The notes: a model not told the origin generated them from the letters alone. A stretch of 64,000 nt of DNA from a bacterium (GCA_043719295.1 JAYSUD010000007.1:891-64890), one strand, 5' to 3'. Shown: positions 1-62,663, counted from the stretch's first letter. Numbers and translations are program-made.

Positions 1-3000
1 TATTACGAGATTGTTTGAGGGAGGATTAACTACTGTATTGTTTACGGTTACGGAAATTGGTGCTGCGTCTTGAATGTTTCCCGCTGCGTCAACTGCACGT
101 GCACTGATAATGTGCGCACCATTTGCAACACTCGCACTATTCCATAAAAATGTATACGGTGCTGTTGTATCTTGTGAACCTACAACGTTACCATCAATGA
201 GTAATGTTACACCTGTAACGGCAACATTATCTGAAGCAGTTGCGGTAATGGTTGTTGTCCCTGAAACAGCAATGCCCACACTTGGTGCTACGATAGATAC
301 AGTTGGAGAAATTGTATCTGCTGTAGAAGTTGCACCGGGTCCAGACACACTAACATCATCAATAATAAGTGTACCGTTACCAGCAATTAGATGGAAAAGG
401 GTCATCGATACTACTCCAGTTGGTGGAGTAAAGGTACGACTCATTGTTGCCCAAGTTCCACCAGTTGTAGGTAGTGCTTGCAGAAACTGGTACTGCGAAG
501 CACCGCTAGTTGTCGTGTAACGGATCAGTGCTTCAGAACCAATTGTACTGTTGTACTTGTCACTTATTGTATATTCCGTTCCAGGTGCTACTGGAACATC
601 ATTGAAAAACCATTTTGCATCTCCGTTAGTGTAGCCACTGATAGTGACCGAGGCAGCACTACCAGAGTAACCTGTAGTTGGATACGTAAACACACGGTTG
701 TTTGTTCCCCATCCACCACGGTTCCAGTTTTGGGGGTTACCTGTTGTGCCTAGCGTTTCAAACCCTGAGTTTAGTACTAAGTTACCACCTGCCGGAGGTG
801 TAGTTGAGCTTATATTATTCACCGTGACAAGTCTCTCAACCTTATCGTTATTTCCGTAAGGATCATGTGAAGTGGCTTTTATCACATAATCACCATCTGG
901 ATAAGCTGTTGTGTCCCAAACTACTTCATAAGGTGCAGTAGCGTCTTCAACTCCATGCAACACACCATTAATTGCAAAGTAAACTCCGACTACAGAAGTA
1001 TCATCACTACTCGTTGCTACTAAGGTTACTGTTCCTGAAAGTACATCCCCAACATTTGGATAGACAAAATTAACTCGTGGTGCATTAATTTCTGAAGGAG
1101 TACCAGTACCAGTTGCGTATAATTCAACGTTATCAATAGCCAGAATTGCTTCAGAACTAATGAGATGGAAAAAGGTAATAGTTTCAGCTCCCACAGGTGG
1201 TACAAAAGTCTTCTCTAATTGAGTCCATGAATCAGTTGGTTGAATTTCCTTTATGAGACCAAAATGATGATCTGAACCGTCAGCAAAAGTGTATCGTCCA
1301 ATGATGTCAGAGATTGAGTTGGACTTATACATGGTTCGATATGTATATTCGGTACCAGAATCGACTGGTACCGAAGTGTGTACCCAGCGAGCATCTCCAG
1401 TATCACCATATTCATAGTCTGTAATTACTACCTGTATAGCAGAACCGCCACCCACACCGGTTACAGGATAAGTAAATTCACTCGTAAGAGTTCCGAATCC
1501 TCCAGGTTGCCAACCAAGTGGATTAAGACCGTTAGCTATTTCAAAATCGCCATTTTGTATAAGATTTGGTAAATTATTATTTCCGTTATCTATACTGACT
1601 GTGATTGAGGGAGTGTCAGTTGTATTTCCTGAGGTATCACTAATTCTTGCTGACAGAGCGTAATTACCGTCAGTTAAAGCGGTAGTATCAAACTGCAACG
1701 TATAGGGTGCCTCAGAATCATTAACTCCAACTGGATTACTGTCTATATATAATTGAACTGAAGCTACGCCAATATTGTCAGTAGCATCAACTCCAACTTG
1801 AGTTACATTGGAAAGCACTGATCCCGATGTAATATTGTTAATAATTCCTGATGGAGGCATCACGTCACCACCATTAGTTAAAGTGAGAGAAAAATCATCA
1901 ATTGTTAGTCTTCCATTATTTGCTAATTCATGGAAGATAGTTGCTGTCTCTACTCCAGCTGGAACAATAAAAGTAAAGGTATTGCGAGTTGGCTGTGATA
2001 CAGGTGGTACTACAGAAAGAAATAGATATTCGGTAGTTCCATTTGTCCTCACAAATTGAACAAGTACATCAGTTGGTGCTGTTGCCGTATACAGGTTTGA
2101 AAATGTATAACTTTCTCCCGGAGTCACAAACGCTGGCGAAGAGAGCCATTTGGCGCTACCTGATTCGTAGTTAGTAACGTTGATTTCAGCCGCTTTGGCA
2201 CCAGCATAGCCCACAACCGGATATGTAAAGATTGGATTCATCACACCGTACCAGTTTTGATACCAATCAAGCGGCGATGTTACAAAGGTTCCTTCAATCT
2301 CAACTGACGGATTAGTTACTAAATTACCAGAGCCAATACCATTATTTAGGTACAAGTTAATGCTCTTACGGTTAGATAAGCCATTACTATCGAGTACAGT
2401 TAGGATAACCTCCACATAAACATCATTAGCAGTATGGTCGTCGGCAGGAAACCTAATTGAAGTTGTACCATTTGCTTGATAGATACTATGGGTATGCACA
2501 TTATGGTGCAAAACAACTTCCCAAGAAAATGCGCTCGGAGGAATAATACCATCTTCAGGATCAGTTCCTTCACCACGTACAGTAATCATACCACCTGAAA
2601 CATATAGTGAACCACTAGAGGGAGTAGTAATTTGAGCCTGCGGAGACTGATTACCGACGTAGATGGTGGTACTTTCTGCTACAGCTGAACCAAGACTATC
2701 AGTCACTACTAACGACGCATTGTAAGTACCATTAACTAAATAAGTGTGCGAAGGATTAGCAGCAACCGAAGTGCTCCCATCGCCGAAAGTCCAAGCATAA
2801 GTCATTGGATTGCCGTCTGGGTCATAGGTGCCTAAACTTGAAAATGAAACATTTAATGGTGACAGACCAAAAATAGGATTTGCATTTAGCAAAACAACCG
2901 GACGGCGGTTACCATCAGTATGAGTTATCCTATTAAGATTACCAAAAACAATATCAATGTAGTAGACATTGCCATCAGGACCAGTAATAATTTCTACTGG

Positions 3001-4731
3001 GAAGATATCTGTATTAAAATCGTCTAATCCAATTACAGCGGTACCGGAAGCATTAAGCTCAAGACGCTTCATCCACATTTGAGAATAATCACCAATAAAA
3101 AGCGAATTATTATAGATTGAGGGATAGACTCCATTATCTGGAAATGATCCGGCTGTTATAGAACCCGCTCCTGAGGCATTGTGAGGGTATGTATAAACTG
3201 GATTAATGTGCAAAGAAGTAGTCTCACAACCATAACTTGTCGCGAAGTCTCCTTCCCGACATGGCCAACCATAGTTACCTCCCGGTACTATCCGATTAAT
3301 TTCTTCCCAACTACCCCAACCGACATCGCCTACATACAGCTGTCCTGTGGTTGGGTGAAAGTTAAATCTGAAAGCATTTCTTAGACCAAGTGCATACACT
3401 TTTGATCGATTTGAATTAGGATCCCCATTATAAAATGGATTGTCAGTAGGAGCTGTTCCATCTGTGTTAATGCGGAGTATTTTACCTGCCAAAGCATCAA
3501 TATTTTGAGCTCGAAGCGCACGAGGATCAACAGTAACAAAATCAGCACCATCCCCCAAAGTTGCATACAGTTTTCCATCAGGACCAAACCGCAAGCCTCC
3601 AACACTGTGACTGTTTGAGTCCGAGGCTATACAGTCGTCAGTTACTAATAAATCTTCACAGGATGGAGAGTCGATTGAGCCTCCGTCACTACCAACTAAA
3701 ACAAACTTACTTGACTCACTGGCAACATCACCCACGACTGTAAGTCTTACAATTCGACCAGTTTTTGGACCAGCTACATTAACACCAGGAGTGTTTTCAT
3801 AAGTGTATAACGCATAAATATAGCCATTGATAGAGAAATTTGGATCAACAGCCAAACCTAAAAGACCACGGTCACCGAAATTATTAACGTCAGTGAGAGT
3901 AACTAACGGCTCAGGCAGTAATATGTCATTTTTAATAATCCTTATCGAGCCTCCTTTTTCAGCAATTAAAATCCGCCCATCTGGTGTAAACGCTGCAGCA
4001 GTTGCTAAAGCAAAACCTTCTGCAACTACTACACTCTCAAATCCAGGCTCCACAATTTGTGCTTCAGCCCACAAAGGTAACGAAAACATCACAATTCCGA
4101 CAACGATACCAAGCGCAACCGGCAAGGCTAACGAAATGCTTACACGAAGTGTAGAACTAAGACTTCGTATAGGTTCAATCTTCGGAACCCTCTTGAGGAA
4201 AAAATTCTGAATTGGCACTGTTTTAGACTGAATCTGTAAAATTCCTTTTTGAATTGTAGTACCGAACGCACTAATAAAAGACACAAACGTTTTATAGGAT
4301 CGTATGAGTGTCGCATTATTCATAGTGATACGGATTGACTCATTAAGTTTATTCCTGTTTTTAGAGAATAGCCAGACCATCAGGACTCCAAATATAAACA
4401 CTAAAACCATTGGGTATTGTGGTAATACCATAATAAGTTCAAAAAACTTTCCAAAATAGTATTTATATAAGATAACTTGTGGTTCATCTGCTCCAACTTT
4501 TAATGCAGTACCAATAGCAATCGAACCAAGCATAAGCATATAACTACTAACAAAAAGCAAAATTGCGTACGAAATAAGCTTGTTTACAAATTTATTTCTT
4601 ACTATACCCCCATCTTTATTATAAGTCTGGTAGGCTGAGCGATGACCTCTACCGCGTAGATAGTTTAAAATCTTGGCTGAAATGATAATAGCCAAGTGAA
4701 TAAATACAGATAATCCGAAAATTGGTATCAT
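1..4731 (-). CDS. Giant cell-surface protein, partial (ORF continues beyond window start; >1570 aa in window). N-terminal TM segments, glucose/sorbosone-dehydrogenase-like (SGDH/PQQ-type) beta-propeller, PKD domain, then at least three CBM4_9-like + bacterial Ig-like repeat units
   Basis: Hand translation of minus strand from ATG (4731-4729): MIPIFGLSVFIHLAIIISAKILNYLRGRGHRSAYQTY... Frame checked codon by codon at 4621-4731 and at 61-120 (…GAHIISARAVDAAGNIQDAA); no stop seen. Absent from supplied ORF track because no in-window stop. Motifs read: GGSIRIIKNDILLPEP/GDRGLLGLAVDPNF (SGDH-like propeller), PLNVSFSSLGTYDPDGNPMTYAWTFGDGSTS (PKD), repeated NGDFE…(CBM-like) followed by APY…WDTT…DG.Y…A.D..GN (Ig-like). 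Supplied track has only short ORFs across 1-4737, consistent with one long minus-strand reading frame. Confidence 0.75.
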   Translation of the reverse strand, partial: MIPIFGLSVFIHLAIIISAKILNYLRGRGHRSAYQTYNKDGGIVRNKFVNKLISYAILLFVSSYMLMLGSIAIGTALKVGADEPQVILYKYYFGKFFELIMVLPQYPMVLVFIFGVLMVWLFSKNRNKLNESIRITMNNATLIRSYKTFVSFISAFGTTIQKGILQIQSKTVPIQNFFLKRVPKIEPIRSLSSTLRVSISLALPVALGIVVGIVMFSLPLWAEAQIVEPGFESVVVAEGFALATAAAFTPDGRILIAEKGGSIRIIKNDILLPEPLVTLTDVNNFGDRGLLGLAVDPNFSINGYIYALYTYENTPGVNVAGPKTGRIVRLTVVGDVASESSKFVLVGSDGGSIDSPSCEDLLVTDDCIASDSNSHSVGGLRFGPDGKLYATLGDGADFVTVDPRALRAQNIDALAGKILRINTDGTAPTDNPFYNGDPNSNRSKVYALGLRNAFRFNFHPTTGQLYVGDVGWGSWEEINRIVPGGNYGWPCREGDFATSYGCETTSLHINPVYTYPHNASGAGSITAGSFPDNGVYPSIYNNSLFIGDYSQMWMKRLELNASGTAVIGLDDFNTDIFPVEIITGPDGNVYYIDIVFGNLNRITHTDGNRRPVVLLNANPIFGLSPLNVSFSSLGTYDPDGNPMTYAWTFGDGSTSVAANPSHTYLVNGTYNASLVVTDSLGSAVAESTTIYVGNQSPQAQITTPSSGSLYVSGGMITVRGEGTDPEDGIIPPSAFSWEVVLHHNVHTHSIYQANGTTSIRFPADDHTANDVYVEVILTVLDSNGLSNRKSINLYLNNGIGSGNLVTNPSVEIEGTFVTSPLDWYQNWYGVMNPIFTYPVVGYAGAKAAEINVTNYESGSAKWLSSPAFVTPGESYTFSNLYTATAPTDVLVQFVRTNGTTEYLFLSVVPPVSQPTRNTFTFIVPAGVETATIFHELANNGRLTIDDFSLTLTNGGDVMPPSGIINNITSGSVLSNVTQVGVDATDNIGVASVQLYIDSNPVGVNDSEAPYTLQFDTTALTDGNYALSARISDTSGNTTDTPSITVSIDNGNNNLPNLIQNGDFEIANGLNPLGWQPGGFGTLTSEFTYPVTGVGGGSAIQVVITDYEYGDTGDARWVHTSVPVDSGTEYTYRTMYKSNSISDIIGRYTFADGSDHHFGLIKEIQPTDSWTQLEKTFVPPVGAETITFFHLISSEAILAIDNVELYATGTGTPSEINAPRVNFVYPNVGDVLSGTVTLVATSSDDTSVVGVYFAINGVLHGVEDATAPYEVVWDTTAYPDGDYVIKATSHDPYGNNDKVERLVTVNNISSTTPPAGGNLVLNSGFETLGTTGNPQNWNRGGWGTNNRVFTYPTTGYSGSAASVTISGYTNGDAKWFFNDVPVAPGTEYTISDKYNSTIGSEALIRYTTTSGASQYQFLQALPTTGGTWATMSRTFTPPTGVVSMTLFHLIAGNGTLIIDDVSVSGPGATSTADTISPTVSIVAPSVGIAVSGTTTITATASDNVAVTGVTLLIDGNVVGSQDTTAPYTFLWNSASVANGAHIISARAVDAAGNIQDAAPISVTVNNTVVNPPSNNLVI

Positions 4732-4737
4732 AAAAAA

Positions 4738-5775
4738 TTAATCAGTTTGGATGTTTTTGCTGATAAAACGTTCAGGATGAAACCATGCAAGATTTTTTTT
4801 GCCTAGAATCATTTCTTTAACCATCTGTTCTAGAAAAATGTAGGCATTAATAACTACAAGTAAAGCGTATGGAATTGGTACAAGTATAAGTTCTAAGCGT
4901 TTTTCTTTCCATGCAGCGAACAGCGCGAACACTGAAGCTAATGCTAAATATGAAATAATAAAATTTGCAAAGAATTTAAGACTTAATATTGGCAACAAAA
5001 AAAATAAAACTGAAAAAACAAATCCTTCTGCGTACATAATTGATAGTTCAAGTGCAACTTTTGGTTGTTTAGTTGCTAAGGTATAGTGTTTTATCAGACA
5101 TTGCCACCCTCCTCCAAACCATCTCCGAACTTGATTAATATATGAATGGAGTGTTATTGGATCTTGAGTAAACACAATCAGACGAGTGTCATATTGAATT
5201 TTTAAATCCAGTTGATGAAGTCGATAGGTAAAATCTAAGTCTTCAGTAAGAGTATCGTGCTCAAAAGAAATAAACTTCCTAAAATCTGCAGTTTTAAAAA
5301 CTCCTGCAGCTCCAGGAATCACAAACAAAAAACCTAAGTGATGTTGAGCTAATTTATGAAGGTTCTGTCCTACAGAATACTCGAAAGCACGACATGCAGT
5401 AAGCCAGTTGTATTTTTTACTTTGTATATAGCCTCCAAGTGCAGAAAGTTGAGGGTTTTGTACAAAATCGTCTTCAACATATTTAATAAAATCTTGGTCA
5501 AGTACTGTATCACCATCTGTAGCAACAAACACATCTCCGGTAACGTATTGTAGTCCGATTTCTTGCGCATAACTTTTATTACCTGTTGGCGTTGGAAGTG
5601 AAACTACAGTGATTGCATCACCAAATGAAGCAAGAATTTCTGCACTTTTATCAGAACTTCCGTCGTTTACAACAATAATTTGATCTGGCTTTCTTGTTTG
5701 AGAAAGGCATGAAGAAACACAATCAGCGATTGATTTTTCTTCATTGTAACAGGGAATAAGAATTGAAATTTTCAT
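4738..5775 (-). CDS. Family 2 glycosyltransferase, processive beta-glycan synthase type (cellulose synthase/PgaC/NodC-like), C-terminal TM helices
   Basis: ORF track 4738..5814; likely start MKISILIPCYNEE (5775). Motifs DGSSD, DGD, TEDLD and QVRRW (QxxRW) typical of processive GT2; hydrophobic C-terminus. Stop 7 nt from start of giant ORF at 4731. Confidence 0.8.
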   Translation of the reverse strand: MKISILIPCYNEEKSIADCVSSCLSQTRKPDQIIVVNDGSSDKSAEILASFGDAITVVSLPTPTGNKSYAQEIGLQYVTGDVFVATDGDTVLDQDFIKYVEDDFVQNPQLSALGGYIQSKKYNWLTACRAFEYSVGQNLHKLAQHHLGFLFVIPGAAGVFKTADFRKFISFEHDTLTEDLDFTYRLHQLDLKIQYDTRLIVFTQDPITLHSYINQVRRWFGGGWQCLIKHYTLATKQPKVALELSIMYAEGFVFSVLFFLLPILSLKFFANFIISYLALASVFALFAAWKEKRLELILVPIPYALLVVINAYIFLEQMVKEMILGKKNLAWFHPERFISKNIQTD

Positions 5776-5927: not shown

Positions 5928-6584
5928 CTACAACACTTCTTTTATCGTTGCGTATACCACAAGATTATGACTGTATCGTTGAATCCCTTTATTAAAAGTG
6001 CCTGAACAGGTTACCAAGCGAAGTGTTGGAGCGTCTGTTTTTCCATATACCTTTTCAGTTGGAAATGAGTCTTGCGGGTACCTAACAAGCTCATCGACGA
6101 CAAACACTGCAGTGGTACCATCTTCCCTCCCCACATCAATAGTGTCGCCCTTTCTAAGCCGTCCAAGTGAATAAAAGATTGCAGGACCGTCTTTTGAATC
6201 TACGTGCCCTAAGATGACCGCTGGACCAACCTCTCCAGGAGTCGCCCCTTGCCCATACCACCCAACTTGAGTGAATGAATCGGGAACTTCGATAGTTTGA
6301 TCAGCTTGTAATTGAAGTGGTGCTACAAAAGTAGCGTCAAGTGAAAGCGCAGGGATTCGTAAAGAAATTGGTTGACTTCGCTCATACAAACTACTATTTG
6401 AAGCTAACTCTTGTTCTGAAGAAGTTTTTTCTTGGTGATAAGATTTTCCTATTATTCCCATACCCACAATGATACAAACAACAAACGCCACTACGAGAAC
6501 GTAATGACGAATTGTTTGTTTCAGAGTCTTTTGTTGAGGATTAGTATCCATTCTTTGTTCGTCGTGTTGAAACTGAACCTCCAA
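5928..6584 (-). CDS. Sortase family transpeptidase (class E/F-like) with N-terminal TM anchor
   Basis: ILGHVDS (His), TLRLVTCSG (TLxTC Cys) and downstream QRYS (Arg) catalytic triad order; N-terminal hydrophobic segment. Alternative start MDTNP at 6551. Confidence 0.75.
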   Translation of the reverse strand: MEVQFQHDEQRMDTNPQQKTLKQTIRHYVLVVAFVVCIIVGMGIIGKSYHQEKTSSEQELASNSSLYERSQPISLRIPALSLDATFVAPLQLQADQTIEVPDSFTQVGWYGQGATPGEVGPAVILGHVDSKDGPAIFYSLGRLRKGDTIDVGREDGTTAVFVVDELVRYPQDSFPTEKVYGKTDAPTLRLVTCSGTFNKGIQRYSHNLVVYATIKEVL

Positions 6585-8016
6585 GAATTGCTGTTAGGTT
6601 TGGAAGTGTGACCCCAATAGGTGAGGTTGCTCCAGCACCTGTTGCTGGCGCACCAAGCGGCATCTTGTCTGTTGCAGCACCAAGTACTGCACCCTTAGGA
6701 GTGTTTGAAGTTGAATCTCCACGCACTTCCCCGTCTGGAGTATTATTACTTGGACTCTTACGTGAACCAACTTTACCTCCACCTCCTCCTCCGCCACCGT
6801 TTGAAGAATCAACTGGTGCATTTACAATAACTGAACAAGTACTAGAAGCTTCAGTATCATCAAACACGGTAAGTGTAAACGTTTCTTCTAAACCAGTAGT
6901 TGTTACAACTGCTGTACCGGTAGCTACACTTGTTGAAGCTATAGCACCGAATTGTGTGAGTGTTGCAGATGTAGCGTCGAGACTCACCCATGCAAGAGTT
7001 TCAGTATTTGGCTCATTTTCTACATCCTCAAGAACAGCAATTTCACACACAGGGAAATACTCTTCATCAGTATCGTCATCACAATCTTCCTCGAATGTTC
7101 GAGCAAATTGCTCTGTTGATGTTGATGCTTCGTCACAAGGATCAATAACTACATCTTTTTTGTTGTAGAAATCAACGTGATATGCATCATCTGCATATAC
7201 ATAGCCGTTTGTTTCACCTACTTGTACGCTTGTCTTTCCATCTTCAGTTTTAATGTCAGCGTCAGCGGCAACAGTAAGTTTGTTCGCTTCATTAGCTTCC
7301 TTAGTTCCCATTTCAACACTTACGTTTGTCCATCCTTTCTGAAGTACCTCATACACACGATACATAAATGAATGTTGCTCTTCTACAACTTCAGTTCCCG
7401 CATATCCATCCCATTCAAGACAGTAGTAACCGTTTTTGTCTGTATTTTCTTCATCGAGTCCGTAGATGTTCTCGCTCCGATCTCCAAATGTAAGTACTTT
7501 CATGAGACCAATAGCCCAGTTTGAAAGTGGATTGCCCTTTTCATCGTACTTGTGACCTTCAAATTCACATGCACCTTCAGTGTCTTCATTGGTGTCTTCA
7601 TACACACAAGTTCCTTCTTCTTCATAGTTAGTAGCCTCACTATCGTTACAGGTAACAGCATCAAGCGGTGCGACACATCCATTTTCGTGAATTTCTTGGT
7701 TTTCAGTAGTCCAGTTTTGTCCTTCAAAAGAACCAGATTCTTCTTCACCTAAGTCATAATTAAATGGTGGAATGATATCAGACCCGTGCGTACCATGACC
7801 ATTAATCTCGTTAATGATACTATTTGCATCTACTGTATTACTTGTATAAGGGTTATGTTCACTTGCGGTTGCATGACAAATGGTCACATTTGGATTATTG
7901 GGAAACTCAAATTCCGTTGCAAATACTGAGCTAAATGGACCAAAAGCCATAGCTAAGAGTACAATAACGGCAAAAAAACGCTTTTGCGTAATTGAATGAA
8001 TAGTTGAATAAGTCAT
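6541..8016 (-). CDS. Secreted, highly acidic (D/E/T/N-rich), Cys-containing surface protein with poly-Gly run; possible sortase substrate
   Basis: Signal peptide (FFAVIVLLAMAFGPFSSVFA); acidic low-complexity body with paired Cys; GGGGGGGG run; C-terminus …GVTLPNLTAILGGSVSTRRTKNGY (LPxxT-like then short hydrophobic + basic tail). Overlaps sortase gene start. Confidence 0.55.
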   Translation of the reverse strand: MTYSTIHSITQKRFFAVIVLLAMAFGPFSSVFATEFEFPNNPNVTICHATASEHNPYTSNTVDANSIINEINGHGTHGSDIIPPFNYDLGEEESGSFEGQNWTTENQEIHENGCVAPLDAVTCNDSEATNYEEEGTCVYEDTNEDTEGACEFEGHKYDEKGNPLSNWAIGLMKVLTFGDRSENIYGLDEENTDKNGYYCLEWDGYAGTEVVEEQHSFMYRVYEVLQKGWTNVSVEMGTKEANEANKLTVAADADIKTEDGKTSVQVGETNGYVYADDAYHVDFYNKKDVVIDPCDEASTSTEQFARTFEEDCDDDTDEEYFPVCEIAVLEDVENEPNTETLAWVSLDATSATLTQFGAIASTSVATGTAVVTTTGLEETFTLTVFDDTEASSTCSVIVNAPVDSSNGGGGGGGGKVGSRKSPSNNTPDGEVRGDSTSNTPKGAVLGAATDKMPLGAPATGAGATSPIGVTLPNLTAILGGSVSTRRTKNGY

Positions 8017-8186: not shown

Positions 8187-8612
8187 CTAACTTTTTTGTA
8201 CCTGCTCTAGCTTAAAAATATCTAAATTCTTTTCAAAGAGAATATTGTAGTGCTCAAAAAAATTGTTTTGACCAAGTAGAATATCCACAGGTAAATCAAT
8301 TACAAAATTAAAAGGTGCCTCAAATAAGTACTCGGAATCTTTGACCATCATACTCAATGTATGAACATAACCTGTTGAATGACCATTTCCAATACCTCCT
8401 ACGAGTAAGTGAGTTCCTGACTCAATAATAATACCCAAATCTTTTGCATAAGATGCATTAATCATTGATGTTGTGCAACCAGAATCAATCATCGCAAGAA
8501 TTGGTGGCAGACTAAAGTCACCGTTGTGAAGCTCAATCTCAAGCATTGGGCGACAAACTACCCCTTCTTTTCCTGCAAAGAACTTGAAGTATCGAAATGT
8601 TGACCAAGTCAT
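8187..8612 (-). CDS. Retropepsin-like (clan AA) aspartic protease
   Basis: AMIDSGCTTSMI motif (D-S/T-G active site) in a 141-aa protein, typical of bacterial retropepsin-like proteases. Confidence 0.6.
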   Translation of the reverse strand: MTWSTFRYFKFFAGKEGVVCRPMLEIELHNGDFSLPPILAMIDSGCTTSMINASYAKDLGIIIESGTHLLVGGIGNGHSTGYVHTLSMMVKDSEYLFEAPFNFVIDLPVDILLGQNNFFEHYNILFEKNLDIFKLEQVQKS

Positions 8613-17835: not shown

Positions 17836-17922
17836 GGAGAGTTCGCATAGTGGTCTAGTGCACTGCCTTGGAAAGGCAGCATCGGGGCAACCTGATCAGG
17901 AGTTCAAATCTCCTACTCTCCG
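17836..17922 (+). tRNA. tRNA-Ser (anticodon GGA), long variable arm
   Basis: Acceptor GGAGAGT/ACTCTCC, 3-bp D-stem, anticodon stem CTGCC/GGCAG with loop TTGGAAA (GGA), 18-nt variable arm, T-arm AGGAG-TTCAAAT-CTCCT, discriminator G. Confidence 0.85.
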
Positions 17923-17925
17923 CAT

Positions 17926-55131: not shown

Positions 55132-56604
55132 CTATACAATATCGCCAATCTCTTTAGCTATAACAGTCTCAGCCTCATCAATATTTTTACGAAGCCGTTT
55201 AAGAATCTTCGCCTCGGCTTGTGTAAGCTTTCTTTTTTTACTTGTTTTTTCAAGTGTTGCAATATCTTCCAATAAATCAGTACGTAAAAGTTCAAACGCT
55301 TTATGTGTCATAGCTTTCGCTTCAGCAACTTCTTTGGCAACATGTCGACGCAAGCCACCAAATGCTTTCCAAGTAGCGAAGAGTACCCCACAAAGAAGTA
55401 CCACAAGCGCCAAAAATGGTATGACAATTGAAAGTATCATAATAACAAAGTCACCTTTTTGTTTAATACCCCCATTTAAAGTTTCATCATTTTCTTCAAG
55501 TATCACCGACTTATCTATAACAGTAAATGATATTTTTGATTCTGTTGTATTACCTGCACCATCAAAAGCTGTAACAGTAAGGACATGAACTCCTTCTTCA
55601 ATCGCTGTAATTTTATATATATGACTTCCATCATCCACAAACGATACTGGTGTTTCTTCGTTTATTTGCACTGTATACGAAGCAATCTTTGAAAGTTCAT
55701 CTTCAGCTTCAAAGAGAAACGAAAGTGGCGCAACTTCCGTTACTGTAAAAGGTTGTGGTGCTACTGTGTCAACTTGTATTTTATAATGTATTACTTCACT
55801 CCATCCTTGTTGACCTAAAGACTGCACATGAAGGTACGAAGTTCCTTCAGGTAGGTCTTGTATTACTTTAGTTTCTATCGGAGGTTCATACAGTACCGCG
55901 GGTTTTGAACTAGGGTTATCATCAAGGAGCAATCGTAATGCTTTAGTATCACGAACAAACGTAAAGGTAAACATTCCTGTTGTAGTAGAAGACCACCCAT
56001 CTTGTGTATGCGTTGCTGATGTTATTGTCGGTGGAAGTGTTGCGGGACCAGAGGATAGAGATTCTTCTTGTTGCACGCTTTGTACAACAACTTCTGGAAG
56101 TAACGTAAATGAAGCAGTTCCTTTACTTGCAAGAATCTCTGTCCCTTCCCCATCATTTGCAAGTAACGAAGCTGAAGAAAATGAAAGTGAGGAAGCTCCT
56201 TGTGATTTTACCCTAAATGTCAGATTAAGAACCTTCCCTTGTGATCCCTTAAATCCTGGATTAAGAACAATGCCCTCAAAGTTCACTGTTCCTTTAGTAT
56301 TTGAAAATGAAGGTTCTTGAACCCACAAAGACATAATCGACTGGTTCTTTGAAATACTTATAACCTCGAGTTTGTCTTGAGGGTAGGACACAACACCAGA
56401 AACAGCGTTAATAGAAGATTCACCACTTCCTGTATACACACCAACAGTAAATGTTGAACCTTGAGCATAAGAACCTGTTGTTGGAGAAAATGTTAACGTT
56501 GCCGCTAGAGTAACTCCCACTTGAACGAAAAAAAGAAAAATTACAAATGTGAACGTACAGAAAAAGTTCGCCGATATATAAAATATGTTACAAGAAGAAC
56601 GCAC
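55132..56604 (-). CDS. Cohesin-like domain surface protein with Ig-like middle region, C-terminal TM anchor and cytoplasmic coiled-coil tail
   Basis: N-terminal LTFSPTTGSYAQGSTFTVGVYTGSG…INAVSGVVSYPQDKLEVISI… fits cohesin beta-sandwich pattern; TM FVIMILSIVIPFLALVVLLCGVLFATW. Confidence 0.5.
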   Translation of the reverse strand: MRSSCNIFYISANFFCTFTFVIFLFFVQVGVTLAATLTFSPTTGSYAQGSTFTVGVYTGSGESSINAVSGVVSYPQDKLEVISISKNQSIMSLWVQEPSFSNTKGTVNFEGIVLNPGFKGSQGKVLNLTFRVKSQGASSLSFSSASLLANDGEGTEILASKGTASFTLLPEVVVQSVQQEESLSSGPATLPPTITSATHTQDGWSSTTTGMFTFTFVRDTKALRLLLDDNPSSKPAVLYEPPIETKVIQDLPEGTSYLHVQSLGQQGWSEVIHYKIQVDTVAPQPFTVTEVAPLSFLFEAEDELSKIASYTVQINEETPVSFVDDGSHIYKITAIEEGVHVLTVTAFDGAGNTTESKISFTVIDKSVILEENDETLNGGIKQKGDFVIMILSIVIPFLALVVLLCGVLFATWKAFGGLRRHVAKEVAEAKAMTHKAFELLRTDLLEDIATLEKTSKKRKLTQAEAKILKRLRKNIDEAETVIAKEIGDIV

Positions 56605-57419
56605 AGTACAACTATAATACCAATTGTTTTTTCATTTTGATACCACAGTATATCTTTTTGTGGATAGAAAATGACCACACGTTCATTTTGATTCATGTCT
56701 ATTGCCTTAATAAAGATTTTTTTATTTTGGTTTATATTTTTAATTTTGTATGGACTTTCAGCTTTATGGTACCTGCCAAACAAACCCTCTTTAATTTCAA
56801 AGTGTGAGAGCCCAGAGTTTTTATCTAATGTTGAAAAAACCAAAAACGCATCTCCATCGAACACATCAACGTCGTACTCAACTGACGGTACAAAGAGTTC
56901 TGGCACTTCGTCATCTAGATACACTTTCTTCAGGATTGTTGACTCTCCTTCTTCAACTACCACATGCAAGTTTTGAGAAACGACCACCGCCTCTGAGCCC
57001 AACCCATCGTGCACAAGTACTTGAGAATTTGAAATAGAAATAGTACCTTGTCCTTTTTTTAAGACAGAAAAAGTGAGGTTAACAATCGAGGCGTCTTCTT
57101 GTGTAAATCCCCCTGGAGTAATCCCTGCAAACGATACACTTCCATTGTTGACTCCTTTTGTGTCACGAAGCCAGACTGTCACTACCGAATCCCCTGCATC
57201 ACTTGAAACAAACTCAAGAAGGTCAGGAGGGTATGCAACTTCCAGTTCTACTGCATTAAGTACCTGCTTTTGTGTATCAATACGCACAGAAACTGTCAAA
57301 ACATCCCCAACATGAACACTACTAAAGTCACTCTCAATCTTAAGAAGTGCCCCATACACAGGCATTGTTGCCGCATACCATCCAAACACCACCATACTCC
57401 ATACTAAAAATAATTTCAT
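56541..57419 (-). CDS. Cohesin-like domain surface protein with C-terminal TM anchor
   Basis: LLKIESDFSSVHVGDVLTVSVRIDTQKQVLNAVELEVAYPPDLLEFVSS… (cohesin pattern); TM near C-terminus; alternative start MKLFLVW (57419) avoids overlap with upstream gene. Confidence 0.5.
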   Translation of the reverse strand: MKLFLVWSMVVFGWYAATMPVYGALLKIESDFSSVHVGDVLTVSVRIDTQKQVLNAVELEVAYPPDLLEFVSSDAGDSVVTVWLRDTKGVNNGSVSFAGITPGGFTQEDASIVNLTFSVLKKGQGTISISNSQVLVHDGLGSEAVVVSQNLHVVVEEGESTILKKVYLDDEVPELFVPSVEYDVDVFDGDAFLVFSTLDKNSGLSHFEIKEGLFGRYHKAESPYKIKNINQNKKIFIKAIDMNQNERVVIFYPQKDILWYQNEKTIGIIVVLCVLLVTYFIYRRTFSVRSHL

Positions 57420-57421
57420 AT

Positions 57422-58471
57422 TTATCCAGTCCAATGGAAGGCCATAATACTAAAATCTACAAGATTTATTTTTCCATCGCCGTTAAGATGATTTGTCTCA
57501 CGAATTAAAAAGGATGGATTTAGGGGACGCTGATACCAAAATGCAACAATGGAAAAATCAACTAAGTTTACTCTACAATCTCCATTTAAGTCAGCCTTAG
57601 AAGAACACGTTGGTGGCGTGTTGTTGTATACGTTTTTTGTACCAACTTCAAAAGGATATACTGCACTTTGCGAAGAAATAACAGATTCCAAAGAAGCACG
57701 TGATTTAGCTGTATGTGACCCAAGTTCCAATACTGAAGAATCAAAGCTATGCAAATAGACACCATCTGTATCTGAAGTAGCCTTCACAAAATGCTGTAAC
57801 TCTGAATTTACTTCAATGGTGATTGCTGAAAAAGGAGTACTCTGTCCAAAAAGTACAATGGGCTCACCCTTTTTTACTTCAGTTTTATCACCGGTTAACG
57901 TTGGAGACACAAAAATACTTTCAATTTTTGTCACTACGTTTTTACTTACTGATATTGGAAATGTCAAAAGAGTCGATCGTACTCCTTTACTATCTTCACT
58001 GTAGATGGAAAAAATATACGTACCGGCACTTAAACCTTTTATCAAAACTTGAAACGTTGCATTTTCATCAGCAATAGTTGTTGCTACTACTTGTGCATCT
58101 TTTAAGATTGTAACTTCACTTTTAGGGTATGCGCGACCCTTAAGAACAACTTGTGCCCCCTTAGGAGTACTCCCGCCACTTCCCCCACCCCCACCTGAAG
58201 GTGGTGGCGTAAAAATGCAGGACGTTGTATCTAACAGACATGATGATGTACATGACAAGGTTCCTGAAGTAAATCCCTCTAAAGTACAAGAAGACCCCCC
58301 TAAGTCGGGTCCATCACACTCTTCCGGGCTTTCAATGATGTAATCTCCACATCCTTCAACAATTGCTTCTATAGCAACTGTAGAACTTCCAACTCCCTGA
58401 GCATTTGAATATTGAACTACTATAAAACTTACACAAAGTGATACAAGTATAATGACAGAAGGAGCTTTCAT
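57422..58471 (-). CDS. Secreted protein with N-terminal Cys-rich (Myxococcus-type CxDG…EECDG) repeat, Gly-rich linker, Ig-like domains and C-terminal type I dockerin (two Ca-binding repeats)
   Basis: C-terminus …ADLNGDCRVNLVDFSIVAFWYQRP…NHLNGDGKINLVDFSIMAFHW = duplicated DxNxDGxVNxxD dockerin repeats; N-term EGCGDYIIESPEECDGPDL. Confidence 0.65.
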   Translation of the reverse strand: MKAPSVIILVSLCVSFIVVQYSNAQGVGSSTVAIEAIVEGCGDYIIESPEECDGPDLGGSSCTLEGFTSGTLSCTSSCLLDTTSCIFTPPPSGGGGGSGGSTPKGAQVVLKGRAYPKSEVTILKDAQVVATTIADENATFQVLIKGLSAGTYIFSIYSEDSKGVRSTLLTFPISVSKNVVTKIESIFVSPTLTGDKTEVKKGEPIVLFGQSTPFSAITIEVNSELQHFVKATSDTDGVYLHSFDSSVLELGSHTAKSRASLESVISSQSAVYPFEVGTKNVYNNTPPTCSSKADLNGDCRVNLVDFSIVAFWYQRPLNPSFLIRETNHLNGDGKINLVDFSIMAFHWTG

Positions 58472-58477
58472 TACACA

Positions 58478-59434
58478 TTATTTGTTTGATTTACTTTTTG
58501 AAATAATCCAAGAATTGTATTTCCGGAGACCAAGATAGAGACCCGCAAGAATCACTGCAGAAATTACTAATAACTGCCAAGGAATCAGTACAAAGCGATA
58601 TACGTCAGTAGCAACTTGATTTGTGGCACCATAGGTAACTTTTATGTGTGCACTATAGAGACCAAAGTGAAAATCTGAAAATTGTTCCTTTGCGGTTGCA
58701 AAAAAACTATCTGTTGAAGTAGCAACTACTGTTTGCCCCCACACTGATTCAAATTTGCGTGTGCTATTTGGCAACACACTCCCTTCGTTTACGTTTGCAG
58801 CAAATGTTGTAGCAACTCCTCCAAAAGTGTTTTTAATGGTTATGTCACCAAGTGGTACAACCCGGTCTCCTCCACTATTTGAAAAGCGATACGAAAAAGA
58901 AATAGGAAGTTCAGAAAATATGCGCCCACCATTATTTGCAGCGTACTCACTCAAGCCAGCACTTTCGACAATATCACCTGAGACTCGAAGGAGTATCAGG
59001 ATTCCTAGCTTTCCACCAATTGAAACTTCCCCAGCTTCTTGAGATGCTGGATCTTGTTCTCCTAAGAAAACAGCCGCGAAGTAACCTCCTGGTTCAGCGT
59101 CTTTGGGGATAGTAATTGTATAGGGTACTATTGTTTTCTGTCCTGGTTCTAGTGTCACTTGGTTTTGTGCTCGTAGCCAAGTAGCAAGCCCGTCTGTAGC
59201 GCCTATAAAACGAGGTGAGCCGGTATCTCCCGCAGGCTCGAAATTTTCAAATGAAGTAAAAAGTAGCTTTGGTATGTTCTGCTCATTAATAAGCTCAATT
59301 TCACCTCGAAGTGTCTGCCCTGCGTCTCCTGTAACCTCAACTTTAACTGGTGAAGCAGTAAGTGCAAATGCTTGGCTTGCAGAGAAAAAAAGCGTTATTG
59401 CCAATCCCAACATCACTAACCGAGTTAATTTCAT
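58478..59434 (-). CDS. Cell-surface protein with signal peptide, beta-sandwich ectodomain and C-terminal TM anchor + Lys-rich tail (DUF916-like?)
   Basis: Signal peptide LGLAITLFFSASQAFA; C-terminal WQLLVISAVILAGLYLGLRKYNSWIISKSKSNK. Confidence 0.4.
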   Translation of the reverse strand: MKLTRLVMLGLAITLFFSASQAFALTASPVKVEVTGDAGQTLRGEIELINEQNIPKLLFTSFENFEPAGDTGSPRFIGATDGLATWLRAQNQVTLEPGQKTIVPYTITIPKDAEPGGYFAAVFLGEQDPASQEAGEVSIGGKLGILILLRVSGDIVESAGLSEYAANNGGRIFSELPISFSYRFSNSGGDRVVPLGDITIKNTFGGVATTFAANVNEGSVLPNSTRKFESVWGQTVVATSTDSFFATAKEQFSDFHFGLYSAHIKVTYGATNQVATDVYRFVLIPWQLLVISAVILAGLYLGLRKYNSWIISKSKSNK

Positions 59435-59472
59435 TTGTGGCTATAATACTCCATATTTTTGCCTGTGCAACT

Positions 59473-60540
59473 TTAAAAGTTTGCAGTAGCCACGTAGGTC
59501 AAGGTTGATGTGTATGCACCTGCTTCAGTGTTTGAAGTAATGTTTGCAATGTATCTTGCTGAATAGGTTGTGTTTGCTGACGCTCCTGCTGCAGAAGCGA
59601 TTTGGTCAGGGAATGCTGCACTATCAAACGCAAATCCAGCAGCTGCATACGGCACAGCAACAGTTCCAGAACCTCCTGAAGCTGACATACGAACACCAAA
59701 CTGTTCTGTTCCAATACTTGACGCTGTGTTAGCCGCACCTATTGCAGTAATAGTGTTAGCGCCTGAAGTAAGTGTGTTTCCTGCAAGACTCATAGAATAC
59801 CCACTTGCAGCATTGGTCCCCACAATAACGTTATGGGCCTCAACTTCTGTAGCTTGTCCTGAAGCAGTTCCAGATGCAAATCGCGCAGCTCCTGAACCAA
59901 GTGAACCAAAAGAAATAGTGTTATCAGAAATACTAAACGTAATTGATTGAGGCACCGTAGCGGTGATGGCAACCTGGCTGTTTGTTAAGATATTGTTTGT
60001 GATGTCTCCTGTATCACCAAAGGTTCCTGAAACGGTCATTGTATATGAACCAGGTGTAGTTGGGTTAATTGAGTTTGTCCCGTTGTAGGTAATGATCATC
60101 TTATCATTTGCCGCAACAACAGCTGCACCTACGCCATCAGAAGGAGCAGTCAAGGTCAAAATCCGATTCTGTGTTCCTGAGAAAGCTGCTCCCCATGCAG
60201 AAGCACTTGGTGCTGCCGCTAGTGTTTCAGTGCTTTCAAGTCCCGTTGATGCACCATGGGTAAAAGTTACTGTACCAATAGTCTTACTTGTAAAGTTGTA
60301 GTCAGAAGGGAATGTAAGAATGATTGTATCTGTATTGTCTCCTGCACCGGTTGGTGTAACAAAACGAATAGCATGAGTTGATGTCGCGCTTATGGTCTGA
60401 TTTGACATTGTATCTGAAACTGCAGTTATCGACGCTGCATACGCAAAATTAAACGAAAACAATGAGACAAGCATCGCAAACAGAAGTGCAAAACTCGTTG
60501 CTTTCAAGGCTTGAGTATTAAAAATTAAAGATGCGGTCAT
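59473..60540 (-). CDS. Secreted Thr/Ser/Ala/Gly-rich beta-rich surface protein (putative fibre/adhesin subunit)
   Basis: Likely start MTASLIFNTQ… with signal peptide …SLFSFNFAYA|AS; low-complexity T/S/A/G-rich body; no catalytic motifs. Confidence 0.4.
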   Translation of the reverse strand: MTASLIFNTQALKATSFALLFAMLVSLFSFNFAYAASITAVSDTMSNQTISATSTHAIRFVTPTGAGDNTDTIILTFPSDYNFTSKTIGTVTFTHGASTGLESTETLAAAPSASAWGAAFSGTQNRILTLTAPSDGVGAAVVAANDKMIITYNGTNSINPTTPGSYTMTVSGTFGDTGDITNNILTNSQVAITATVPQSITFSISDNTISFGSLGSGAARFASGTASGQATEVEAHNVIVGTNAASGYSMSLAGNTLTSGANTITAIGAANTASSIGTEQFGVRMSASGGSGTVAVPYAAAGFAFDSAAFPDQIASAAGASANTTYSARYIANITSNTEAGAYTSTLTYVATANF

Positions 60541-60696
60541 GGTAAATAGTGTAAATAGAATTAAATAATGGAACGTGTAACGCACCGTGCACAAGACACA
60601 GCTGTAACTCCCTTTAGTATACCCCTAATTCACAACACAAATACGTCAGCCTGTGAAGAACTTTCAACGTTAAGCGGACCTTATTTTAAAAAGCTA

Positions 60697-61155
60697 TCAA
60701 AATTGTAGATATGTTGTAAACATAAACGGTACGTTGTTAACTTCATAATGCATATGTATCTGTGTTGGAACGTTTCCAAGAGTTGGAACCACCGTCATGT
60801 GCATTTCACTAAGTACGAACGCGTCTCCCGTAAGAACGACTTCATCACTTCCTGTCCTTTTAAAGTACACTTTTCCATCAAAGAAACGAATCGTAAGAGG
60901 ACTTTCTGAGTTCAAATCGGGTCGCGAAATTACTAGTGTATAGGGAGTAGACAGCGTTACTGCTGTGGCACCCTGAAGTGCCCAATGTATTTTCCTCTGT
61001 ATAAACATCCCTTCTTCTTGTATAGCGATATCAGTACGATTGTTTTCAAAACTCTGTAATAGCTCATAGACAGTAATGAGTGCACCTGTCATGAGTACAC
61101 CAAAAAGAGCAATATAGATAAGTGTCTCAAGTAATGTGAATCCGTGTTTGCTCAT
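60697..61155 (-). CDS. Type IV pilin/pseudopilin (prepilin-type N-terminal cleavage/methylation domain)
   Basis: N-terminus MSKHGFTLLETLIYIALFGVLM (G|FTLLE class III signal). Confidence 0.7.
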   Translation of the reverse strand: MSKHGFTLLETLIYIALFGVLMTGALITVYELLQSFENNRTDIAIQEEGMFIQRKIHWALQGATAVTLSTPYTLVISRPDLNSESPLTIRFFDGKVYFKRTGSDEVVLTGDAFVLSEMHMTVVPTLGNVPTQIHMHYEVNNVPFMFTTYLQF

Positions 61156-62288: not shown

Positions 62289-62318
62289 GGAAGTGGTCGG
62301 ATATCGTTCTCCAATACG

Positions 62319-62657
62319 TCAGGAAACATTTGTCTCTGCATACTTAAAACAAGAAGAAATGTCTGTAACGGCGTGTTGTAAAAAATAACAAAGTCCCCCA
62401 AGAAGACAGAGCGTGTCAGCAACATCATCAAGAACAGCAAGTGTTTGAAGATCCGTACTTGAGGCACCTTGAAAGTCTTCTAAAGACGAGGCCACAAGAA
62501 GTTCACTTTGCATCTTTGTTTTGTACAATGCCTCTGTGCCGACTTGTGAAGTAATAACCCAGTACTGAGAAGAAATATTTGCCTCTACAGCTCCAACAAT
62601 AATGGTAACCATCAATGCTAACGCGATTACAATTTCAAGAGTACTAAATCCTCGCAT
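62319..62657 (-). CDS. Type IV pilin-like protein (prepilin N-terminal domain)
   Basis: MRGFSTLEIVIALALMVTIIVG (G|FSTLE). Confidence 0.7.
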   Translation of the reverse strand: MRGFSTLEIVIALALMVTIIVGAVEANISSQYWVITSQVGTEALYKTKMQSELLVASSLEDFQGASSTDLQTLAVLDDVADTLCLLGGLCYFLQHAVTDISSCFKYAETNVS

Positions 62658-62663
62658 AAAGTA

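Follow-up and report, generated by a model that had tools for sequence, protein, structure and literature searches.

The stretch of bacterial DNA analysed here is 64,000 nucleotides (nt) long (GCA_043719295.1, JAYSUD010000007.1:891-64890) and is called the window below. At its left edge lies the gene of a giant exported protein, read on the minus strand and cut by the edge. From the gene context we propose, with a probability of roughly 0.55, that this protein processes the product of a Pga/Ica-like synthase-dependent polysaccharide system outside the cell, as a subunit of that system. The conserved cassette order is a glycosyltransferase family 2 (GT2) gene, a small membrane module, the giant ectodomain and a tethered protein similar to glycoside hydrolase family 26 (GH26).

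The Patescibacteria, or candidate phyla radiation (CPR), are abundant, mostly uncultured and dependent on host attachment, and little is known of how they build their surfaces. The gene family described here is conserved in many of them and joins a polysaccharide synthase, a giant exported protein and the pyrroloquinoline quinone (PQQ)-type propellers of organisms unable to make PQQ.

The giant open reading frame (ORF; 1..4731, minus strand) runs from the ATG at 4731 to base 1 through 1,577 codons with zero stops on re-translation, as the first-pass annotation had claimed. Since the other five frames across 1-4731 hold 64-169 stops each, this is a real coding frame and not a chance one. The earlier suspicion that the supplied ORF track dropped it for lack of a stop in the window was also right, as the ORF list leaves out frames running off the source end. 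The ATG sits 6 nt past the TAA (4740-4738) of the upstream gene and is the true start, because the closest relatives begin with the same residues. They open with MIPIFGLSVF..., which is identical in the window protein and the closest relative, P0001, or with MF-QF-GLS--IHL-II.

The 1,577 residues include only four cysteines, all in the propeller as two pairs that are both invariant, as would suit a protein that is exported. The GC content of the giant gene (0.407) is like that of the rest of the window (0.397), and no paralog of the gene is found elsewhere in the 64 kb. P0001 is 2,095 amino acids (aa) long and 75% identical over 99% of the query, and relatives have 1,900-2,500 aa. The full protein would have about 2,000 residues, of which the window holds the first 1,577.

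In a separately assembled contig of 10.4 kb (L091, Logan SRR23617205), the DNA of these genes is identical, but it breaks off at position 10434, at aa 1,347 of the giant gene. Exact look-ups of the GT2 and the neighbouring sortase returned solely this contig, which ends earlier in the gene than the window does. An exact DNA search of metagenome contigs with window bases 1-47 gave no match. Two independent assemblies therefore break off inside the giant gene, at aa 1,577 in the window and at aa 1,347 in L091. In metagenome-assembled genomes (MAGs), truncation of such giant, repeat-rich genes is probably frequent across the family, and the database lengths and domain counts are then underestimates.

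Of 8,000 candidates that were scored, 1,992 proteins reach E<=1e-5 and make up the family, which is mostly from Patescibacteria. This number and the conserved synteny contradict the earlier idea that the giant protein is strain-specific, while the small-genome episymbiont lineage suggested with it is borne out by the nearest relatives, all from Patescibacteria/Parcubacteria MAGs. The named top matches are MAG proteins of Patescibacteria, Parcubacteria, Nomurabacteria, Pacebacteria and Kaiserbacteria. Their database names are 'PQQ-dependent sugar dehydrogenase', 'Ig-like domain-containing protein' and, by JGI, 'glucose/arabinose dehydrogenase/...deacetylase'.

Beyond the point where the window ends, P0001 continues with a further unit like a carbohydrate-binding module (CBM) and then a carbohydrate esterase family 4 (CE4)/NodB deacetylase. 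The deacetylase keeps the motifs FDDG, H(T/S)xxH, YPYG and LxMFHQ, with a CBM-like insertion of about 200 aa between the first two. Among the other long-form loci, CE4 is fused to the giant protein in L001, L002, L086 and L087 and encoded by a separate gene in L083.

The gene directly upstream (4738..5775, minus strand) encodes a 345-aa GT2 that matches Pfam Glycos_transf_2 and Glyco_trans_2_3. It has DGD, TED and QVRRW motifs and three C-terminal transmembrane (TM) helices. With the D, D, D, QxxRW motifs and these helices, it is thus of the processive polysaccharide synthase type. The best NCBIfam family is PgaC_IcaA (TIGR03937, E 5.9e-41). The alignment with E. coli PgaC has 29% identity over 287 aa (E 4e-34) and keeps the three motifs in register, while the N-terminal TM region of PgaC, residues 1-75, is missing here. 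The GT core of BcsA also aligns with this GT2.

We examined the contigs of nine relatives, seven of them long-form (L001, L002 and L083-L087) and two short-form. In all seven long-form loci, the stop of a 344-346-aa GT2 of this kind is followed after 1-10 nt by the next gene, and beyond the giant gene lies a GH26-like one. The same tight spacing between GT2 and the TM module or giant gene is seen in the window and in another locus, L090; the gaps in these nine loci with a GT2 are 6, 8, 6, 5, 2, 10, 5, 1 and 9 nt. The flanking genes vary instead, being RNase J and SBP_bac_5 in L001/L002, a V-type ATPase in L083 and FUR/Zip in L085. Some relatives have GH18, GH16 or CAP-domain genes nearby.

Among the loci examined, the coupling is confined to the long forms. 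Neither GT2 nor the GH26 partner is present in the two short-form Patescibacteria loci (0/2), whose proteins of 1,539 and 1,090 aa have no CE4. The 80 loci kept from distant propeller relatives contain just one weak GT2 match and one GH26 match. Stop readthrough or a split gene joining the GT2 to the giant ORF was considered and rejected, for the TAA is in frame here but only 3 of 9 loci are in frame, the chance expectation.

One short-form protein, P0051 (1,539 aa, locus L088), is encoded without GT2 or GH26 directly after mraZ, methyltransferase and ftsI-type penicillin-binding protein genes, a division/cell-wall cluster. This position hints at a different role of the short forms, which is possibly peptidoglycan-related. 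In P0099 (1,725 aa, JGI/GEM), a Dpm1/GtrB-like non-processive cytoplasmic GT2 is fused through one TM helix to the core of propeller, PKD and immunoglobulin (Ig)-like domain described below. It connects this propeller with GT2 enzymes a second time, and independently.

The multi-TM region that the first-pass annotation placed at the N-terminus is present, with hydrophobic segments at aa 1-19, 56-74, 99-117 and 197-220 by hydropathy. The first three make up a membrane module of aa 1-130 (4342..4731, minus strand), with TM1 at 1-19, a basic loop, TM2 at 56-74 and TM3 at 99-117 by hydropathy and alignment A2. In this alignment, the conserved core comprises TM1, the basic loop SA(F/Y)QTYNK-GG, TM2 and an external G-A-D-E-P-Q. 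A Pfam search of the module returned no family. By the positive-inside rule, the loops 20-55 and 122-196 are predicted to be cytoplasmic and everything past aa 224 extracellular. Between the module and TM4 lies a basic linker of variable composition (aa 131-196; 4144..4341, minus strand), predicted to be cytoplasmic and poorly conserved among the class A relatives defined below.

TM4, a probable internal signal peptide (aa 197-224; 4060..4143, minus strand), ends with ...LPLWAEA and is followed by QIVEPGFE at a conserved junction. The family has two N-terminal classes. Class A, to which the window protein belongs, has an N-domain of 4-5 TM segments, and class B has an ordinary signal peptide. 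In 18 of 18 class A proteins, (A/V)-x-A directly precedes Q/A-I-x-E-P-G-F at the end of TM4, and this junction is in register with the signal-peptide end of the class B relatives. From this register we infer that signal peptidase cleaves between Ala224 and Gln225, with TM4 as an internal signal peptide. The ectodomain is then probably released from the membrane module, and a permanent anchor, which the multi-TM region might have seemed to be, is unlikely in view of the conserved (A/V)-x-A site before Gln.

The membrane module is found both fused and as its own gene. The class B locus L086 has a gene of 142 aa, placed after the GT2 and before the giant gene, whose product is a homologue of window aa 1-130 (46% identity, profile E 1.6e-35). 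In L090, the GT2 C-terminus is followed 9 nt on by a free-standing copy of the module. L087 has a hydrophobic ORF of 108 aa at the same place, between GT2 and giant gene, in which homology to the module was not detected. With cleavage at TM4, both arrangements, fused and split, would end in a membrane module plus an ectodomain set free from it.

An exhaustive HMMER search with window aa 1-135 against 1.84 billion representatives matched 16 clusters, consisting of 13 small proteins (101-196 aa) and 3 giant proteins. Among these 16, the match always lies at the extreme N-terminus and is never fused to other kinds of protein. The module is a separable unit, fused or in its own gene, and in the loci examined it always stands behind the GT2. 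Two candidate origins were rejected. Homology to E. coli PgaD has an hhalign probability of 0.2% and is kept as a positional analogy, and a relocation of the N-terminal TMs of PgaC has a probability of 23% over 16 hydrophobic columns, which is noise.

The partner on the far side of the giant gene is known from L001 (16298-17638, minus strand), L002 (17105-18367, minus), L083 (15868-17034, minus), L084 (14398-15699, minus), L085 (14282-15418, minus), L086 (16133-17413, minus) and L087 (13765-15180, plus). It aligns over the whole catalytic domain with the GH26 domain of C. thermocellum CelH (E 3e-27), which we take to be the lichenase CtLic26A; the match to mannanases is far poorer. Each of the seven has a hydrophobic anchor at the N-terminus, then a Pro/Thr-rich linker, and in each the acid/base Glu is retained (SELNGNW, at CelH E109). 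At the position of CelH residue 222, presumably the Glu nucleophile of the wild-type enzyme, all seven have Ser, and the aligned chain 2CIP_A has Gln. The partner could act by substrate-assisted catalysis on 2-acetamido sugars, which would fit the PgaC-like synthase and the CE4, or it could equally be a non-catalytic binder.

The order of domains in the giant protein is the membrane module, TM4, a propeller, a PKD domain, an Ig-like domain with a His cluster, three pairs of a CBM-like and an Ig-like unit, and the start of a fourth CBM-like unit. This agrees with the earlier assignment of a PQQ-type propeller, a PKD domain and at least three CBM4_9-like and Ig-like repeat units, each of which now has Pfam matches and, for the propeller and the first CBM-like unit, an AlphaFold2 (AF2) model.

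The ectodomain opens with a six-bladed beta-propeller of the GSDH (glucose/sorbosone dehydrogenase) type at aa 225-604 (2920..4059, minus strand). Pfam GSDH matches aa 245-592 with 157.6 bits (cutoff 25), and the AF2 model of aa 225-604 has a predicted local distance difference test (pLDDT) score of 87.1 and a predicted TM-score (pTM) of 0.90. The best Foldseek matches of the model are 3A9G, 2ISM, 7CDY, 3DAS and 2G8S, with target-normalised TM-scores of 0.79-0.86, and soluble glucose dehydrogenase (sGDH) is matched too; the E-values of all six are 1e-24 to 1e-20. The aldose sugar dehydrogenases (Asd type) and sGDH thus come before HHIP, and the fungal auxiliary activity family 12 (AA12) enzymes follow more weakly.

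In alignment A1 of 17 sequences, 53-87% identical to the window, the propeller residues His375, Arg451-Asn452 and the Cys pairs 358/367 and 491/502 are invariant. In profile alignment to sGDH and YliI, sGDH His144 aligns with His375, and Arg228/Asn229 with Arg451/Asn452. Of 120 relatives, 108 have the His motif and 115 the RN motif. Gly471/Trp472 align with Gly247/Pro248, the backbone Ca ligands of sGDH. Of the PQQ/Ca ligands, whose retention the first-pass annotation had marked for checking, the catalytic His and the Arg-Asn pair are therefore kept, but the PQQ carboxylate clamps are lost. Arg288, Arg455, His517, Trp553 and Lys555 are also invariant and could give an AA12-like PQQ binding. 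The score with TIGR03606 (non_repeat_PQQ, NCBIfam) is 106.4 bits, below the cutoff of 434.55. All in all, the propeller is a conserved member of the GSDH fold that bears an active site, and its PQQ use is putative.

PQQ six-bladed propellers with one or two Cys pairs have been noted in 247 CPR genomes (Voutsinos et al. 2026 preprint, 10.64898/2026.07.10.737718). The preprint proposes lanthanide dependence for these propellers and reports PQQ/La binding for Chloroflexi and Acidobacteria proteins only. In its lanthanide signature, the set Asn, Glu, Arg, Asp, Asp at the metal site replaces Asn448-Ser449-Leu450-Asp451...Glu471 of the fungal AA12 enzyme CcPDH. The window stretch at that site, by sequence order, is Asp469-Val470-Gly471-Trp472...Glu493 and has neither the lanthanide nor the CcPDH signature. 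The lanthanide-type signature is not recognisable at the aligned propeller positions. The preprint makes no mention of a CBM, PKD, deacetylase or glycosyltransferase context.

Behind the propeller is a PKD domain (aa 605-689; 2665..2919, minus strand), matched by Pfam PKD_4 with 69.2 bits and PKD with 45.9 bits at aa 616-688. Next comes the His-cluster Ig-like domain (aa 690-802; 2326..2664, minus strand), recognised by an all-beta AF2 model, a weak Big_7 match and its invariant columns. Apart from this weak match, Pfam has no family for it. The cluster L-H-H-N-x-H-x-H ... D-H comprises His742, 743, 746, 748 and 766, all five invariant, and may be a metal site. No solved homologous structure in the PDB carries it.

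In 110 of 120 family members, the spacing between the propeller and the His-cluster domain is fixed. The domain, with the cluster in the wider form L-H-H-N/D-x-H-x-H ... D-H, occurs also in at least 11 distant non-Patescibacteria propeller proteins, including one of a Nitrososphaera archaeon; these loci are L005, L006, L007, L011, L020, L031, L036, L038, L045, L046 and L055. As it keeps its distance both in the family and in distant phyla, the propeller, PKD and His-cluster domain together are, by this spread, an old core. At least 517 distant propeller relatives were confirmed in the genome-contig scan, and the 80 loci kept from it (31-45% identity) come from Chloroflexota, Acidobacteriota, Actinomycetota, Planctomycetota, Proteobacteria and archaea.

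The rest of the window protein consists of alternating CBM4_9-like and Ig-like units, all on the minus strand. Over the whole protein, Pfam CBM_4_9 scores 48.5 bits (cutoff 25.9) in 2 stretches and Big_7 132 bits in 3 stretches, with Big_13 also present; CBM units 1 and 2 taken singly are below the Pfam cutoff. CBM unit 1 (aa 803-958; 1858..2325) has a weak CBM_4_9 match (E 0.003) and an AF2 model, and is followed by Ig-like unit 1 (aa 959-1056; 1564..1857), with Big_13 at aa 991-1049 and Big_7. CBM unit 2 (aa 1057-1215; 1087..1563) matches CBM_4_9 with E 6e-4 and CBM_4_9_1 weakly, and Ig-like unit 2 (aa 1216-1312; 796..1086) matches Big_7. CBM unit 3 (aa 1313-1465; 337..795) contains the best CBM_4_9 stretch, aa 1316-1439, and Ig-like unit 3 (aa 1466-1570; 22..336) the best Big_7 stretch, aa 1476-1544. 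Bases 1..21 encode the beginning (...SNNLVI) of a fourth CBM-like unit, which the edge interrupts; this part is collinear with P0001.

The AF2 model of aa 690-960 has two beta-sandwich domains, an Ig-like one and then a CBM-type one. CBM unit 1 in the model matches 2C26, CBM4-2, CBM16, CBM22, CBM29 and CBM4, all type-B CBMs, with TM-scores of about 0.6-0.69. The pair of Ig-like and CBM domains matches best 2C26, which we take to be the PKD-CBM44 pair of C. thermocellum. In the model, therefore, the giant protein has the CBM4/CBM9-type beta-sandwich fold, with putative carbohydrate binding. The giant gene has no direct DNA repeats of 30 nt or longer and the protein no internal BLASTP matches at E<=1e-3. 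Hence a recent internal duplication of the CBM/Ig units is ruled out and the units are old and diverged.

Upstream of the GT2, the window has a class F sortase gene (5928..6584, minus strand; NCBIfam class_F_sortase 182.8 bits, cutoff 166) and the gene of a 491-aa acidic secreted protein (6541..8016, minus strand) that ends with MPLGAPATGAG, a hydrophobic stretch and RRTK. A class F sortase is likewise upstream of the GT2 in L001, L002, L084, L085 and L086. The 491-aa protein and the sortase-adjacent proteins of these five other loci share the signal x-P-x-G-A/G-x-x-T-G-A-G-G, behind which come hydrophobic residues and a basic tail. The sites of sortase and sorting-signal protein are L001 4488-6305, L002 5922-8114, L084 4767-6119, L085 5217-6152 and L086 3642-5630. 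The 491-aa protein is a probable sortase substrate, and its signal looks like a Patescibacteria variant of LPXTG.

The C-termini of 19 relatives of the giant protein end in CE4 or a CBM-like module, without the local sorting signal x-P-x-G-A-x-x-T-G-A-G-G. A loose LPxT[GAS] pattern matched just P0010 and P0011, and four relatives were flagged for a hydrophobic segment at the C-terminus. Sortase anchoring of the giant protein was rejected, as the inspected relatives have no local signal and the pattern hits in P0010 and P0011 were not supported by inspection. For the same reason, the sortase pair is probably a neighbouring unit that does not act on the giant protein.

In the mechanism that we propose, the GT2 would polymerise a beta-linked glycan and extrude the chain. 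The module of 2-3 TM segments would pack against the GT2 as a co-synthase and complete or regulate it, in the manner of PgaD/IcaD or the BcsB anchor. Signal peptidase would cut between Ala224 and Gln225 and free the ectodomain, which would hold the emerging glycan through its CBM units, while the C-terminal CE4 would de-acetylate it. The propeller would possibly oxidise or cap the reducing end of the glycan, and the GH26-like partner would trim or release the polymer.

GSDH enzymes oxidise the anomeric carbon, and processive GT2s of the BcsA type extrude the reducing end first. The oxidation or capping of the reducing end is an attractive guess for these two reasons, yet the role of the propeller is the weakest link of the mechanism. 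As to the polymer, an N-acetylhexosamine type fits the PgaC-like GT2, the CE4 and the GH26 without nucleophile, and the CBM4-type folds with the lichenase-like GH26 suit a beta-glucan.

Several observations weigh against this proposal. The GT2 reaches 140.8 bits where the equivalog cutoff of TIGR03937 is 422.3, and covers profile positions 46-327 of 407. By hhalign, the TM module is not detectably homologous to PgaD or to PgaC's N-terminal TMs, so the comparison with PgaD/IcaD is one of position and topology. The GH26-like partner, lacking the canonical nucleophile, may not be a hydrolase at all. The C-terminus of the window protein lies past the window edge; a CE4 there is predicted from relatives, and CE4 was not seen in L084 and L085. 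The census consists of the seven long-form loci with the window, L090 and L091, picked from the top matches; as all are from related lineages of Parcubacteria type, common descent rather than selection could account for some of the synteny.

The propeller adds to these points. The positions of the sGDH residues that clamp PQQ, Lys377, Arg406 and Arg408, are occupied throughout the family by Ser/Ala550, Phe/Gly/Trp577 and Val579, and 98 of 120 relatives have GPV/WPV/FPV at the R-x-R position; sGDH and YliI give the same alignment for blade 6. An electron acceptor is not evident either, and according to the preprint PQQ biosynthesis is encoded in none of the CPR genomes (10.64898/2026.07.10.737718).

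Other readings have to be compared with the polysaccharide-processing subunit. The giant protein could be a host-directed adhesin or cell-wall-modifying enzyme, whose CBMs bind host glycans and which deacetylates peptidoglycan or chitin-like material and oxidises sugars, the GT2 having an unrelated envelope function. The Patescibacteria lineage suits such a role, as do the CBM-type folds, the PgdA/NodB kind of CE4 in relatives, the GH18, GH16 and CAP-domain genes near some of them, and the adjoining sortase with its surface-protein substrate. We consider it rather unlikely, however, because it leaves unexplained the GT2 and TM module at 1-10 nt in every long-form locus and their absence in the short forms, as well as the fission and fusion of the TM module. 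Moreover, the N-terminal anchor is probably cleaved, and the CE4 or CBM-like ends of relatives offer no convincing cell-wall anchor, despite the pattern hits of P0010 and P0011 and the four hydrophobic flags. The first-pass annotation, with its carbohydrate-binding adhesin or surface enzyme, was close to this reading; it was right about the CBM-type folds but missed the GT2 coupling and the GH26-like neighbour.

A stand-alone extracellular PQQ sugar dehydrogenase, targeted by its CBMs to polysaccharide, would act on free or polymer-end aldoses with PQQ scavenged from neighbouring cells. Fungal CcPDH (AA12), fused to CBM1, is a precedent, and this reading draws on the GSDH match and fold, the invariant His375 and Arg451-Asn452, the names given to relatives by NCBI and JGI, and the Cys-paired propellers of 247 CPR genomes (10.64898/2026.07.10.737718). 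It is nonetheless improbable, given the family-wide loss of basic residues at the Lys377/Arg406/Arg408 positions, the score of 106 bits against 434 for TIGR03606, the missing PQQ biosynthesis genes of CPR (10.64898/2026.07.10.737718) and the lack of a cytochrome or other acceptor domain, and it ignores the cassette. In characterised sGDH, Asd and AA12 enzymes, the blade-6 Arg is conserved (PMC6881789). The missing carboxylate clamps would suit instead a non-catalytic scaffold, a lectin-like spacer or matrix protein with many CBM/Ig repeats, whose propeller binds a ligand like vertebrate HHIP. HHIP, which shares the fold and binds glycosaminoglycan, is matched strongly in structure, with a heparin complex among the matches, and also in sequence. 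But the catalytic His, the Arg-Asn pair and the dense polar residues around them are invariant in the 17-sequence alignment, which points to a conserved active site, and the CE4 motifs of relatives are intact, so a mere scaffold is very improbable. These readings are not mutually exclusive, and none of them accounts for the coupling to the GT2 and TM module.

A more specific form of the polysaccharide-processing proposal is an undescribed Patescibacteria exopolysaccharide machine. It would combine a minimal PgaC-like GT2, a lineage-specific membrane module, a released ectodomain whose propeller oxidises or caps the reducing end, whose CBM/Ig units hold the chain and whose CE4 de-acetylates it, and a substrate-assisted GH26-like cutter. 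In this full form it is speculative and, we think, unlikely. If it is true, the 'PQQ propellers' of CPR gain a concrete role in building a matrix or attachment polymer of the episymbionts.

Databases already list the family under automatic names, and the preprint (10.64898/2026.07.10.737718) has noted its propeller. Our literature search found no description of this architecture or cassette, and the cassette, the separable TM module, the AxA junction and the GH26 partner without nucleophile appear to be undescribed in the searched literature. If the cassette reading is true, it provides a testable model for a CPR-made extracellular polymer with four parts, the GT2, TM module, ectodomain and GH26-like protein. 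If it is wrong, the giant protein is still a correctly annotated member of a large unstudied family. Two conserved modules are defined in either case, the small TM module and the His-cluster Ig domain, the latter occurring well beyond CPR.

Some other features of the window lie apart from the cassette. A 141-aa ORF (8187-8612, minus strand), called as a gene in L091 too, has a weak match to retropepsin-like aspartyl protease (PF09668, 27.0 bits, cutoff 26). A same-strand run at 55132-63984 (minus strand), mostly without Pfam matches, includes proteins of 378, 373 and 490 aa, the last with a weak Big_13 match. It is closed by a T2SS-F/PilC-type platform protein (63124-63984, minus strand) and may be a type IV pilus-like locus. 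A tRNA-Ser(GGA) at 17836-17923 (plus strand) is the only RNA gene detected in the 64 kb, with no rRNA or other Rfam families.

Among known systems, the cassette is best compared with PgaABCD of E. coli and IcaADBC of staphylococci, which make poly-beta-1,6-N-acetylglucosamine. The ica genes are ordered icaA-icaD-icaB, that is, synthase, small TM protein and deacetylase, and the cassette mirrors this order. Its GT2 is homologous to PgaC and has a small membrane partner directly next to it, and a CE4 deacetylase function and a glycoside-hydrolase-family protein follow downstream. Unlike in Pga/Ica, however, the GT2 is far below the equivalog cutoff and has no counterpart of about the first 75 residues of PgaC, and the TM module matches PgaD in position and topology without detectable homology. 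The deacetylase here ends a protein of about 2,000 aa that also bears the propeller, PKD, His-cluster Ig and CBM/Ig repeats. The partner is GH26-like, without nucleophile, instead of GH153, and there is no outer-membrane porin.

The cellulose synthase BcsA-BcsB also has a processive GT2 with QxxRW, the core of which aligns here. BcsB is a large extracytoplasmic subunit with carbohydrate-binding domains that places membrane helices beside the synthase and is anchored by a C-terminal helix. The giant protein resembles it as a large extracytoplasmic carbohydrate-binding partner that contributes membrane helices, but it is unrelated to BcsB in sequence and the system has no PilZ domain. Its membrane part is N-terminal, separable and probably cleaved, whereas that of BcsB is a C-terminal helix.

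The propeller has the same six-bladed fold as sGDH (A. calcoaceticus, 1C9U), YliI/Asd (E. coli, 2G8S), Asd (P. aerophilum, 3A9G) and TTHA0570 (T. thermophilus, 2ISM), with TM-scores up to 0.86. It shares with these soluble PQQ dehydrogenases the catalytic His, the Arg-Asn pair on the ortho-quinone of PQQ (O4/O5) and a Gly at the Ca ligand Gly247. It differs from them by identities of 21-27%, non-basic residues at the Lys and Arg-x-Arg clamps, two extra invariant Cys pairs of disulfide type, and its place inside a giant protein rather than in a soluble enzyme of about 350-450 aa.

The fungal AA12 enzymes CcPDH (6JWF/6JT5) and TrAA12 (6I1T) are weaker structural matches (12-15% identity, TM-score about 0.6), and a cytochrome domain is absent here. 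They are similar as secreted PQQ propellers fused to a carbohydrate-binding module. Arg621 and His560 of CcPDH have no clear counterpart in the window protein, but Arg288, His517 and Trp553 come in the same order as its Arg273, His539 and Trp563, by sequence order only. The individual repeat units score below the Pfam cutoff and are just 10-19% identical to the CBM structures, but their Ig-like and CBM sandwich has the fold of PKD-CBM44 (2C26) and of the type-B CBMs CBM4, CBM16, CBM22 and CBM29, with TM-scores of 0.6-0.69.

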